DNA of 11,198 nt from a virus (Duplodnaviria > Heunggongvirae > Uroviricota > Caudoviricetes): positions 1 to 11,198 of IMG/VR virus record IMGVR_UViG_2734482782_000002, one strand, 5' to 3'. Position 1 is the first letter of the stretch. Each line of letters opens with the position of its first letter. The notes under the pieces were generated by a model. It worked only from the letters and a program-made list of their open reading frames with translations, did not search any database and was not told the DNA's origin. Of the stretch, positions 1 to 5,742 are shown one piece after another. Both the position numbers and the translations under genes were made by a program.

Positions 1-615
1 ATGTTAGTTAGTAAAAGCAACGGATTTAACGCTAGCGCAGTTTTGGGTAGTGGAAGTTATAATGAAAATAAATCTTCTAAACACATGGAGCTACTAGCTC
101 ATAGTATTTTAAAATTAATTTGTAAGGAAGCTGCATCAGAGACGTATCGCGGTGCTCTTGAAACTTTACAAAAAATGATGTCTGAATGTATATATCATGA
201 AGGCAACGCCTTTGTCATTATGGGAGTTGGAGAACAATTAAAACGTATTAAATATGAAGTTGGTGAAAATAACTTAAAGGTATTCAACGTACACTTTAAT
301 AATAATCACGAGTTAGTTAGTTCTGGTGAGCCTGACGTAATATGTTTAAGCAAGCAGGTCTGGGAAAATCTTCTCATTAAACTAAAGCTGGAAAACAATG
401 AAAATGTGTTTTCTGAAACTAAAAAATTATCGAATAAAAATAATGACGATCAGTTTTTTGAATGCGCTAAAAGAAATGAACAGAACCTTTTCGATAATAT
501 AAGAAAAAGTGATTTTCATGTTGGTTTACTTAAGCCAAGTAGTACGCGTAGTGTTATTTTAGAAACGCCGCCAAATGTCTGTATGGAATCACGTAATTCA
601 TATGAAAAAAAATAG
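1..615 (+). CDS. AT-rich hypothetical protein, N-terminal segment of a frameshifted gene (possibly 5'-partial at window edge)
   Basis: 204-aa ORF in visibly AT-rich DNA, ends at TAG 613-615 directly after an A8 run (605-612). The downstream reading frame is open from 606 and continues to 1373. No family recognised. Confidence 0.5.
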   Translation: MLVSKSNGFNASAVLGSGSYNENKSSKHMELLAHSILKLICKEAASETYRGALETLQKMMSECIYHEGNAFVIMGVGEQLKRIKYEVGENNLKVFNVHFNNNHELVSSGEPDVICLSKQVWENLLIKLKLENNENVFSETKKLSNKNNDDQFFECAKRNEQNLFDNIRKSDFHVGLLKPSSTRSVILETPPNVCMESRNSYEKK

Positions 616-629
616 ATGAGATTTCATCT

Positions 630-1373
630 TTGTCAGAGTCAAAGGAACACCCCATAGATATTCAAGAAAAAAAAGATGCGTTTGTGAATGAGTTCAAGGG
701 GATATTATTTGATAAAAATGGAAGGTCTTCAGAGTTTCTACTTAATTTTTATGAATGTTGCTATGAGTTTTTACCAAGAGCGCAGCCTCAGGATAAAATC
801 GAAAGCTATAATTCAGCACTGCAAGCTTTCTCCATCTTTTGTTCATCTACGTTGATACATAATAATATAGGCTTTGATTTCAAATTATTTCCAGAAGTCA
901 AACTGTGTGGGGAAAATCTTGAAACGGTATTCAAATATAAAAATGGCGATGATGTCCGGGAGATAGCCAAAATTAACATTACTCTCCAAAAAGAAGAGGA
1001 TGGTTTATATAATTTAGGTGGATTGGATTTTAAGGGATGCTTCTTTTCTGGACAGAACTTCAGTAACTATGATATTCAATATGTGAACTGGGGAACGTCA
1101 TTGTTTGATCTTGATACTCCGTGTATTTTTAATGCGCCTGCTTACAACAAGAGTAATGAAAAATCATTAAAACCTGTGAGCGAAAACGGTTTAAGTGGAG
1201 TCTTGACTGATCGTAATAATAAAATAAAACTCATCACGGGCGTGGCACCATTCGATGATATTTTATTTATGGATGATGACTTTGATGATAGTTCCTCTGA
1301 GGATGATCCCGTTGAGAATAGTCCTGTTGTGACTAGTCCCGTTGTATCAAGTTCTAAAAGCAGTTTTCAATGA
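630..1373 (+). CDS. C-terminal segment of the same frameshifted AT-rich gene; pentapeptide-repeat-like block and acidic Ser/Pro-rich tail
   Basis: ORF track 630..1373 begins at TTG, but the frame is open from 606. Adding one A to the A8 tract fuses it in frame with 1..615 (...SYEKK-IDEISSLSESKEHP...). Residues about 128-162 show five-residue periodicity with a hydrophobic second position (DFKGC FFSGQ NFSNY DIQYV NWGTS LFDLD). Confidence 0.5.
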   Translation: MSESKEHPIDIQEKKDAFVNEFKGILFDKNGRSSEFLLNFYECCYEFLPRAQPQDKIESYNSALQAFSIFCSSTLIHNNIGFDFKLFPEVKLCGENLETVFKYKNGDDVREIAKINITLQKEEDGLYNLGGLDFKGCFFSGQNFSNYDIQYVNWGTSLFDLDTPCIFNAPAYNKSNEKSLKPVSENGLSGVLTDRNNKIKLITGVAPFDDILFMDDDFDDSSSEDDPVENSPVVTSPVVSSSKSSFQ

Positions 1374-1646
1374 TTAATAAATGGCTATTTTTACAAAGAG
1401 ATAATAACGTAGATTGAAACAATATGTATTATTGATTGATTAAACGGGATTATTTTTTACACTACAACCATTTTGCTGCCACTACCAAAGAAAAAGGGGC
1501 TACGCTTTCACGTAACCCCTTGATTTATTTGTTGAGCTGGCGGTGTCTGAATTGGTGCTGTAATTGGTTGAAATATTTATTCTAATGTCTGGTTCAACTT
1601 TCCTTAGCTGCCTGAAAGTTTTTTTGATCTTACCCATCAATAATAG

Positions 1647-1880
1647 GGTTACGGTACACCACGCCTGACTGATGAACTGCGTGCTCAGGGTTACCTCTTC
1701 AACGTAAAACCGTGGCAGGAGGTCCGGACTGAAAAAACTGCTCAGGACATTATCGGCGGTGGACGCACGGGTAGTCTGTAAACCGAACCGACTGGGGCGC
1801 AGTATGTGGCATCTTGTCGTGCTGTTGGAGGAGCTGTGCAAACGTGGTATTAACTTTCGTGCTCTGGCCCAATCTATATT
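1647..1880 (+). pseudogene. serine recombinase / DNA invertase (Pin/Gin/Hin family) remnant, frameshifted and truncated
   Basis: Frame starting 1771 encodes VVCKPNRLGRSMWHLVVLLEELCKRGINFRALAQSI, which matches from memory the conserved invertase core (VVWKLDRLGRSM.HL..L..EL.ERGINFRSLTDSIDT). Upstream, a different frame (1647-1778) encodes GYGTPRLTDELRAQ..., weakly like the invertase N-terminus. No intact ORF, no C-terminal HTH. Confidence 0.45.
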
Positions 1881-2285
1881 TGCCCAACAATGGGGGGACG
1901 AATGCTGTAAAAGTAAAAGAATCTGCGATCTCAAAGTTATTGTGTTATTTTTATGTGAGCAGAAGATATTCATCAGAAACGATTATGTAAATCATTTTAT
2001 TTTGCCGACGGCCTGATTGTCGAAAGAAAAGAATACCCCCGTATTCCCTGAATAGATTGACTTTTTTATCCAACCATACTTCAGCGCACTGCGTTTAAAA
2101 AATGCTTCTTTCTTATGTGGAATATCATCATTTCATCATGATGTCTTTGATGAGCGGTGAACACAATACACTTGCGCTGTCTCTTCAGGATGAATCCCCT
2201 GGTCTGGTGCCTGTGGGCTGATGTTGCAGCAGAGCTAAGGTCGCTTAAACGCTACTCAGTATTCACTTTTCAGAGGATGAAATTT

Positions 2286-3149
2286 ATGAACAGGACCAGT
2301 CCCCATTATTGTCGCCGCTCAGTACTTTCCTTATTGATATCTGCCTTGATATATGCCCCGCCTGGGATGACGGCCTTCACTCCTGATGTTATTGGTGTGG
2401 TAAACGATGAGACTGTAGATGGCAGCCAAAGAGTAGATGAACGAGGTACAACAAATAACACTCATATTATCAACCATGGCCAGCAGAATGTTCATGGCGG
2501 GGTATCTAATGGAAGTCTTATTGAATCGGGTGGATATCAAGATGTAGGAAGTCATAACAATTTTGTGGGGCAGGCTAATAATACAACCATTAACGGAGGA
2601 AGACAGACAATTCATGACGGGGGCATTTCCACCGGTACGATAATCGACAGTGGCAATCAGGACGTTTATACAGGTGGTATCAGCAATGGAACGACAATTA
2701 AGGGTGGTAATTCACACATAAGTGGGGGGACTGCGAATGGAACCATCATTGATGGTGGAGGGCAGAAAGTAACAACTCAGGGGCATGTTGATGGTACAAC
2801 GATAAATAAGTCCGGTTATCAGGACATCACGCAAGGAAGTATTGCAACGAACACAATCATAAATGGTGGACGACAGTATGTTGAACAGAGCACAGTAGGA
2901 ACAACCACCATTAAAAATGGCGGTGAGCAAAGAGTATATGAAAGCCATGCGCTGGACACGACGATTGAAGGTGGAACTCAGTCTCTGAATAATAAGTCAA
3001 CGGCAAAAATACTCAGATCTATTCTGGTGGTACGCAAATTGTTGATTACACCAGCTCCTCGGATGTTATTGAAGTTTATTCCGGTGGCGTGCTTGATGTT
3101 AGTGGTGGTACGGCAACAAATGTTACCCAGCACGATGGTGCAATTTTAA
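2286..3149 (+). CDS. autotransporter adhesin (AIDA-I/Ag43-type), N-terminal segment with signal peptide; disrupted gene
   Basis: ORF track 2157..3149. Probable start ATG 2286 with AGAGG 9 nt upstream. N-terminus MNRTSPHYCRRSVLSLLISALIYAPPGMTA looks like a signal peptide. Degenerate ~19-aa Gly/Thr/Asn/Gln-rich repeats follow. The repeat pattern is lost after about 3005, where the coding frame switches. Confidence 0.6.
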   Translation: MNRTSPHYCRRSVLSLLISALIYAPPGMTAFTPDVIGVVNDETVDGSQRVDERGTTNNTHIINHGQQNVHGGVSNGSLIESGGYQDVGSHNNFVGQANNTTINGGRQTIHDGGISTGTIIDSGNQDVYTGGISNGTTIKGGNSHISGGTANGTIIDGGGQKVTTQGHVDGTTINKSGYQDITQGSIATNTIINGGRQYVEQSTVGTTTIKNGGEQRVYESHALDTTIEGGTQSLNNKSTAKILRSILVVRKLLITPAPRMLLKFIPVACLMLVVVRQQMLPSTMVQF

Positions 3150-5191: not shown

Positions 5192-5219
5192 TAACCCTGA
5201 ATATCATTTATCCAATGGC

Positions 5220-5546
5220 ATGGAATCGAAATCAGTCGATACCCGCAGTTTATATCGTGAACTGGGTGCAACGCTGAGTTACAACATGCGTCTGGGGAAC
5301 GGTATGGAAGTTGAGCCGTGGCTGAAGGCGGCTGTGCGCAAAGAATTTGTCGATGATAACCGGGTGAAAGTGAATAGTGACGGTAATTTCGTCAATGATT
5401 TGTCGGGCAGACGTGGAATATACCAGGCAGGTATTAAAGCCTCATTCAGCAGTACGTTAAGCGGGCATCTTGGGGTGGGGTATAGCCATGGTGCCGGTGT
5501 GGAATCCCCGTGGAACGGGGTAGCTGGTGTGAACTGGTCGTTCTGA
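5220..5546 (+). CDS. autotransporter C-terminal beta-barrel segment
   Basis: Frame open from 5175 and continuous with the previous segment if one G is removed from the G5 run 5176-5180. Alternating hydrophobic pattern and a C-terminal ...GVNWSF aromatic terminus, as in outer-membrane beta-barrel signatures. Confidence 0.6.
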   Translation: MESKSVDTRSLYRELGATLSYNMRLGNGMEVEPWLKAAVRKEFVDDNRVKVNSDGNFVNDLSGRRGIYQAGIKASFSSTLSGHLGVGYSHGAGVESPWNGVAGVNWSF

Positions 5547-5555
5547 CCATCAACG

Positions 5556-5580
5556 AAAAAGCCCACATCTGTGGGCTTTC
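5556..5580. terminator. bidirectional rho-independent terminator hairpin between the autotransporter gene and the prophage end
   Basis: GCCCACA-TCT-GTGGGC stem-loop (5561-5576) flanked by AAAAA (5556-5560) and TTTC (5577-5580). A second GC-rich palindrome GGAGCCGCGGCTCC (5590-5603) is followed by TTT. Confidence 0.5.
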
Positions 5581-5706
5581 ATGTCACCAGGAGCCGCGGC
5601 TCCTTTGCGTATCCTTTTATGTCTCTTCACCGTCTGGTCGGTGTCCTGCTGAGACTGCTAACTTCCTGTTTTTATTGGTGTTGTCCTTATACCGTCCAAT
5701 CATGAT

Positions 5707-5742
5707 TGGTGGAGCTGGCGGGAGTTGAACTCGCGTCTGAAA
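5707..5742 (-). repeat. attR core: partial copy of the tmRNA (ssrA) 3' end
   Basis: Minus strand reads TTTCAGACGCGAGTTCAACTCCCGCCAGCTCCACCA, i.e. T-arm, acceptor 3' strand and CCA. As recalled it differs from the E. coli ssrA 3' end at two positions, both at the integrase-proximal end. No upstream tmRNA or tRNA body is present, so this is a fragment, not a gene. Confidence 0.7.

Follow-up and report, generated by a model that had tools for sequence, protein, structure and literature searches.

Probable layered remains of ssrA-integrating elements in the Escherichia coli flank of a lambdoid prophage

We analyzed a window of 11,198 nucleotides (nt), positions 1 to 11,198 of IMG/VR virus record IMGVR_UViG_2734482782_000002, and found that its positions 1-5742 are an Escherichia coli accessory block situated between the tRNA gene ileY and ssrA, the gene of transfer-messenger RNA (tmRNA). 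The block holds ypjCB, a remnant of pinH, and ypjA. It is very probably the stacked debris of successive elements that integrated at the 3' end of ssrA. The attachment (att) sequences on which this reading depends are the following, in window coordinates.

1468-1543, minus strand: fossil ssrA-proximal attP arm of a Fels-2-like (P2-family) phage, by its match to free-phage attP
1468-1493, minus strand: ogr-side arm, part of the Fels-2-like relic
1494-1521, minus strand: terminator hairpin with a 12-bp stem, the strongest terminator in the regional scan
1529-1543, minus strand: degenerate last 15 nt of ssrA, reading TTGTTGAGCTGGCGG (native TGGTGGAGCTGGCGG)
1544-1613, minus strand: right terminus left by a CP4-57-like (P4-like) island, joined to the ssrA fragment in precisely the manner of the K-12 attR (psaA)
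5557-5706, minus strand: remnant of an LLS-like lambdoid phage, namely its non-int attP arm (87.8% to LLS)
5561-5576, minus strand: hairpin with its T-run on the minus (ssrA) strand
5707-5742, minus strand: copy of the ssrA 3' end displaced from the gene, serving as att core of the resident prophage (first 24 nt exact, then 12 nt with 2 mismatches)

Positions 1-5073 align with ypjC-ypjB-pinH-ypjA of E. coli K-12 MG1655 at 96.3% identity, and positions 5061-5729 with the 3' end of ypjA plus psaA at 96.9%, both in reverse orientation. The K-12 order (L003) is ssrA, CP4-57, psaA, ypjA, pinH, ypjB, ypjC and ileY, and the succession ileY, ypjC/B, pinH, ypjA, att, element and ssrA is common to K-12 and the block of the window. 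A sequence-only reading of the window had described a decayed AT-rich gene, an invertase remnant and an autotransporter gene outside the att core, and had proposed synteny with the ypjA-pinH region of K-12; all three genes are present where it placed them, and alignment with the K-12 ssrA-ileY interval is collinear at 96-97% identity, in agreement with the proposal. A megablast search with positions 1-5900 gave matches in nearly all of 5426 complete E. coli genomes, and the genes annotated under these matches were ypjCB, a partial "recombinase family protein" and ypjA/ehaD. Of these genomes, 3078 harbor ypjCB and 3004 harbor the 1374-2285 segment; the block is thus present in only about 55-57% of them and is accessory rather than core, so that the outcome named beforehand as fatal to the synteny proposal, a region of core chromosome, did not materialize. 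In the phage-free strain 258E (L002) the sequence is 99.97% identical and agrees with the window through position 5742 save for two mismatches; this strain has an empty attB, in which ssrA itself starts at window position 5707.

The ssrA gene is reportedly an integration hotspot used by several integrase families, and displaced 3' fragments of the gene are said to mark the boundaries of successive elements. In the model that we favor, each integrase would recombine within the last ~15-40 nt of ssrA, and the incoming element would bring a replacement 3' end and terminator, displacing the old 3' end and everything behind it outward. Stranded elements would then be trimmed by later deletions, leaving the oldest debris farthest from ssrA. 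We infer the order of events from position, and likewise that the element bodies were lost by deletion rather than by other processes. Starting on the ileY side, the putative layers would be (a) ypjCB, a frameshifted, AT-rich orphan confined to Escherichia; (b) the ogr-side arm, terminator and last 15 nt of ssrA of a Fels-2-like prophage whose body was lost; (c) the right end of a CP4-57-like island, which would have entered the ssrA copy rebuilt by the P2-like phage; (d) a scrap of a Pin-type invertase; (e) the ypjA module, inactivated here; (f) the LLS-like non-int attP arm, which would now serve as the ssrA flank in empty-site strains; and (g) the displaced ssrA 3' end with the int-xis end of the current prophage, whose Int is a 66% relative of LLS Int.

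The first fossil junction, at 1468-1613, came to light as a second att-like site in a blastn cross-hit. Positions 1468-1543 match the annotated attP of phage Fels-2 (NC_010463, positions 7-83) at 93.5% over 77 nt and an internal site between ogr and int of the free phage Cartapus at 94.8% over 77 nt, the range over the attP sites of Fels-2, SopEPhi, RE2010 and Cartapus being 92-95%. The same stretch matches the 3' ends of intact ssrA genes in Citrobacter, Klebsiella, Tatumella and Enterobacter at 85-93.5%, and in Citrobacter and Enterobacter, the two examined further, P2-like T/U/D genes follow that flank. Alternatively, the arm-like stretches could be ancestral host DNA downstream of ssrA, which phages copied into their attP to restore the 3' end and terminator. 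Such copying would be in keeping with the displaced gene segments that phages integrating into RNA genes carry, and a pattern scan with one genome per species did find the same spacer and hairpin after an intact ssrA in 13 Enterobacterales genomes, drawn from many genera and showing two types of flank downstream. However, the 1468-1493 arm stands beside ogr in free phages and prophages alike, and in the window it lies 4.2 kb from ssrA, fused to a P4-like end, an arrangement that itself needs at least one integration event. Moreover, the other arm, at 5557-5706, begins exactly at the end of the ypjA module and is internal to the independently isolated free phages LLS, phiNP and Ayreon. We therefore regard an ancestral origin of the arms as quite unlikely. 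In its narrow form, with 1459-1545 as the ancestral chromosomal ssrA 3' end and native terminator, we rejected it because the flank precedes P2-like T/U/D genes and matches free-phage attP; only the hairpin itself might be ancestral.

From position 1544 the window reads TGTCTGAATTGG and onward, and 59 of 77 positions agree with those of K-12 psaA and the adjoining CP4-57 right end, a score that none of 2000 shuffles reached, whether or not the core was included. The junction has the form GCTGGCGG joined to WGTCTGAATTGG, followed by terminal non-coding similarity, as at the CP4-57 right end. A scan of IMG/VR with the junction motif recovered this fossil 22 times, along with several analogues that have not decayed. 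The closest analogue, L049, is 91.1% identical to window 1468-1613 over 146 nt and has gpD on one side, while L042 carries P2 D, Ogr, the arm, the terminator and the ssrA piece, followed directly by CbtA, CbeA, RadC, antirestriction and DUF905 genes. Since these undecayed P2-like/P4-like junctions are collinear with the fossil, the latter would be what a tandem of P2-like prophage and P4-like island left behind at ssrA. No P2-like gene (ogr, D) is found in the window beside 1468-1543, whereas such genes are present at the homologous junctions of L013, L017, L042 and L049; likewise, the window has no CbtA/CbeA-type module beside 1544-1613, whereas one is present in L042 and, as yfjZ-ypjF, in K-12. 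As side observations, the L049 right end that matches the fossil best (91%) adjoins a gene for a 575-aa reverse transcriptase (L049 1788-3515), and the undecayed CP4-57-like attR junctions (K-12 L003 23473-23486; L029, L035, L039, L040, L042 and L049) read TGGTGG-GCTGGCGG, one A short of native ssrA, an A that both the window copy at 5707-5721 and the fossil at 1529-1543 retain. The missing nucleotide seems to be characteristic of elements of the CP4-57 type.

The second fossil arm, at 5557-5706, is 87.8% identical to positions 26314-26494 of the free phage LLS (PQ299149), where attP and a tmRNA pseudogene are annotated, and 86.5% and 85.8% identical to the corresponding stretches of phiNP and Ayreon, respectively. 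The LLS-like homology starts exactly where the ypjA module stops (5556/5557). The arm is unchanged in 258E, where it forms the downstream flank of ssrA as in other empty-site strains, and it is present in 4148 of the 5426 genomes, making it commoner than the ypjA block. The equivalent arm of the resident prophage itself (attL in isolate 44, L001) is only about 70% similar to the relic, which argues that the relic came from an earlier, related phage. The flank of an "empty" attB may thus itself derive from a phage, a point to be heeded in annotation.

At the current junction, a duplicate of the ssrA 3' end stands beside a tyrosine integrase gene, and the empty site of 258E breaks exactly at this core. 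Positions 5707-5730 reproduce the final 24 nt of ssrA without a mismatch; at 5731 and 5738 the window has T where native ssrA has C, and past 5742 there is no relation to ssrA. Since the sequence to the left of 5731 is that of the empty site, and both mismatches lie on the phage side and are phage-derived, the crossover would have occurred at or to the left of position 5730. The genes inward of the core are listed below.

5743-7253, minus strand: int-side arm, int and xis of the resident lambdoid prophage (Arm-DNA-bind_2, Phage_integrase, phrog_2917)
5866-7038, minus strand: tyrosine integrase with Arm-DNA-bind_2 and Phage_integrase domains
6993-7253, minus strand: excisionase (phrog_2917, E 1e-40)

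Over its full length, the integrase shares 65.6% identity with the LLS enzyme, but it shows no significant similarity to K-12 IntA (E 0.42) and no meaningful similarity to a P2-family integrase. This integrase of LLS type, unlike IntA, indicates that a lambdoid-type phage other than CP4-57 occupies ssrA, as the sequence-only reading had supposed; past the excisionase follow small early genes, a cI-like S24 repressor and a cro-like gene. The same reading had decayed genes abutting attR directly. The name attR is right in a convention based on ssrA, but the int-proximal junction is attL in the lambda convention, and it is the phage-arm relic at 5557-5706, not ypjA, that touches the core. In isolate 44 the same junction is followed by a truncated integrase gene, tail-fibre-assembly, pin-like and DinI genes, and then ssrA, which in this deleted derivative lies 2.2 kb from the junction. 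We also observed that isolate 44 carries a deletion derivative of the prophage, in which int is fused (L001 14434/14435) at window position 6434 to sequence matching the window from 11066 onward. Two S24/cI-like open reading frames (ORFs) lie on the minus strand of the window, at 8868-9260 and 9918-10622, namely, a 130-aa CI-like product (PHROG) upstream of a full 234-aa repressor with helix-turn-helix (HTH) and S24 domains.

Serial use of ssrA, suggested in the sequence-only reading, is borne out both by the variation of the occupant among strains (CP4-57, the present phage, a deleted remnant or none) and by the two fossil att arms inside the block (1468-1613 and 5557-5706). It could be argued instead that the block is a single island from one event, its internal att-like similarities being cargo or coincidence. 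K-12 and the window are indeed collinear, and the block is largely present or absent as a unit, judging from the counts for ypjCB and 1374-2285. However, the junctions belong to three element types, are oriented as expected for integration at ssrA, and sit at sharp changes of source (1543/1544 and 5556/5557); the segments range in GC content from 0.22 to 0.54; and the LLS-like arm occurs in more genomes than the rest of the block. We therefore consider a single event highly improbable.

With moderate confidence, we put forward a more specific joint proposal: that the 1468-1613 fossil goes back to an ancestor of roughly half of present-day E. coli whose ssrA carried a P2-like helper prophage and a P4-like satellite island in tandem, and that the tmRNA gene of "phage-free" E. 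coli is terminated by the lambdoid-donated hairpin at 5561-5576 rather than by a terminator of its own. If this is true, the 3' flank of an RNA gene in an essential pathway has been swapped several times by mobile elements, with possible effects on tmRNA 3' processing. The literature that could be searched, which did not cover Williams 2003, gave no account of either fossil arm, though an earlier one is possible.

Several points weigh against the layered reading. The intact ssrA and the attL of the current prophage fall outside the window. With no P2-like or P4-like coding remnant, layers (b) and (c) rest on 76 and 70 nt of non-coding similarity, respectively, highly significant as it is in both cases. 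The hairpin at 1494-1521 could by itself be an ancestral host terminator mimicked by phages, as an intact ssrA with a second, different flank also carries it; since it occurs with two flank types, only the 26-nt arm at 1468-1493 is specific to the Fels-2-like attP. The LLS-like arm of Ayreon (L022 2501-2607) is similar at 86%, but no ssrA-like core follows it and the integrase of that phage is unrelated, which points to a mosaic module not strictly tied to ssrA integration. Finally, a paralogue elsewhere in the chromosome, described below, makes it possible that ypjA came from a duplication within the genome and not with a mobile element.

The remaining segments of the block are as follows.

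1-1373, plus strand: ypjCB pseudogene (Pfam DUF5507 and DUF5508; NCBIfam NF050179; GC 0.34)
1374-1467, no strand: very AT-rich stretch (GC 0.22) separating ypjCB from the fossil phage arm
1708-1897, plus strand: pinH remnant, the middle piece of a Pin/Hin-type serine invertase (homology 1720-1878; PF00239)
1898-5556, plus strand: ypjA/ehaD autotransporter module, consisting of an upstream region and a coding-sequence remnant at 2286-5546

The ypjCB pseudogene consists of two ORFs, at 1-615 and 630-1373, which match DUF5507 (E 2e-108) and DUF5508 (E 4e-167) and correspond to positions 1-203 and 227-465 of the single 465-aa NF050179 YpjCB model. They score 384 and 545 bits against this model, whose cutoff is 650 bits, and hence do not constitute a single YpjCB protein. 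The gene is split in an A-run around 606-613; at 609 the window differs from K-12 by 1 nt, the one indel in an alignment to K-12 ypjC plus ypjB at 97.8% identity. As the lesion in K-12 is a different one (an earlier stop plus the 1-nt difference at 609), the two alleles would have decayed independently. All 125 detectable homologues of ypjCB are from E. coli or Shigella. YpjCB alleles fall to 72-77% identity and are truncated to many different lengths, an unusually high within-species diversity for an orphan gene. A phage-cargo origin was examined and not upheld, as tblastn against 50,697 phage records gave no match and the homologues are confined to E. coli/Shigella. The adjoining spacer at 1374-1467 likewise had no match in phages or in the loci of other genera.

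The location of ypjCB invites an alternative in which an island that had ileY, not ssrA, as its target left this gene behind, perhaps along with other parts of the block. The tRNA gene lies upstream of ypjCB at a distance of ~750 bp, its 3' end directed toward ypjCB and into the interval, and ypjCB is situated beyond the most distal ssrA-type fossil. However, a search between ileY and ssrA for a duplicated ileY 3' fragment, which would be the sign of such an island, found none; there is no integrase remnant in this interval either, and phage matches to the ileY-ypjCB spacer are confined to the tRNA itself. An ileY-targeting island is therefore unlikely. The ypjCB gene itself may have come as cargo with the P2-like phage that was lost, may be a relic linked to ileY, or may have another origin. 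We looked for tRNA and tmRNA genes across the window and found none. The ileY gene, a tRNA-Ile(CAU) gene at L002 5176-5251, is outside the window; it is 82-96% identical to tRNA genes of many phages, annotated there as tRNA-Met, a likeness which hints that ileY itself may have been horizontally acquired.

The invertase remnant of the window is the K-12 pseudogene pinH. Positions 1720-1878 match the resolvase profile PF00239 only at profile positions 48-102 of 145 (E 3e-8), and the piece corresponds to residues 42-94 of a 185-aa Pin-like invertase in isolate 44 at 64% identity. The fragment has neither the catalytic N-terminus nor the C-terminal HTH, and stop codons flank it. Between the P4-like end and pinH, the peptide GYGTPRLTDELRAQGYLFNV (1647-1715, plus strand, frame 2) has a weak likeness to HTH_21 (E 0.013). 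We considered a scrap of an IS3-family transposase at this place, but the HTH_21 match, the sole hit, was below the cutoff, and we treat it as unproven.

Lesions in ypjA were called by tblastn and blastn against K-12 ypjA, and three were found: an A5 tract in place of the K-12 A6 at 3005 (-1 shift), an in-frame deletion of 1320 bp at 5061-5070 between short imperfect repeats, and a G5 tract in place of the K-12 G4 at 5176 (+1 shift). Instead of one uninterrupted reading frame, there are ORFs at 2157-3149, 3089-5191 and 5220-5546. The AIDA-repeat passenger is kept (PF16168, 9 stretches, E 2e-131) and is 97.7% identical to residues 241-930 of K-12 YpjA, while the deletion takes out residues of about 930-1365 and leaves the beta-barrel incomplete, with only positions 164-254 of 255 of the Autotransporter beta-domain profile. 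All three frameshifts in ypjCB and ypjA are in homopolymers, namely, at 606-613 (A8), 3000-3005 (A5 versus A6) and 5175-5179 (G5 versus G4). That the 2.1-kb out-of-frame middle ORF (3089-5191) stays open suggests either a recent inactivation of ypjA or slippage-prone tracts.

A paralogous, internally deleted copy of the ypjA module is located at ymgJ-ycgI near minE in most E. coli (L024 6001-6713). It is 88.6% identical to window 1898-2256 and 96.6% identical to 5202-5556, lacks everything between 2257 and 5201, and has no match past either end; these limits define the ends of the module as 1898 and 5556. The difference between the upstream and 3' identities indicates that the two copies differ in history along their length. 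We also compared ycgV as a candidate paralogue and found no similarity. The decay of all three genes is confirmed, and to the view that they were horizontally acquired there is one caveat: given the paralogue near minE, ypjA need not have arrived on a mobile element.

In several IMG/VR viral contigs (L025, L026, L027, L044, L050 and L052), the fossil motif lies at exactly 1537-1557, as in the window. From this identical coordinate it follows that all those prophage calls begin at the ypjCB start codon and include a 5.7-kb non-phage flank. The "viral" window thus over-extends by 5.7 kb into host accessory DNA, and the coordinates above give the boundary of every layer.

The ypjCB-pinH-ypjA locus, annotated in K-12, and the ssrA hotspot were already known, and what is added here is resolution: the block offers a clean teaching case of an RNA-gene integration hotspot that accretes and erodes elements, without being a new kind of system. 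With the ssrA-integrating Peduoviridae Fels-2, SopEPhi and Cartapus it shares the ogr-side arm, terminator and ssrA 3' end at 92-95%, but the window keeps only 76 nt and no adjacent P2-like gene, and its ssrA-like part would have been cut to 15 nt by the later P4-like integration. The temperate phage LLS resembles the window in its integrase, in the arrangement of arm, ssrA-like core, (cargo), int and xis, and in its non-int arm (88% to 5557-5706); it differs in its int-side arm and core, and the LLS-like arm of the window is an older relic rather than that of the resident prophage. The ssrA-ileY interval of K-12 MG1655 has the same genes in the same order and orientation, and also contains pinH as a pseudogene, ypjCB in two parts, the LLS-like arm beside psaA and, close to pinH, the fossil junction. 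However, its ssrA occupant is the P4-like CP4-57 rather than a lambdoid phage with an LLS-type integrase, its ypjA is intact (1526 aa) where that of the window is broken, the ypjCB lesion is not the same in the two, and its displaced ssrA piece measures 14 nt, with 1 nt deleted, against 36 nt in the window.

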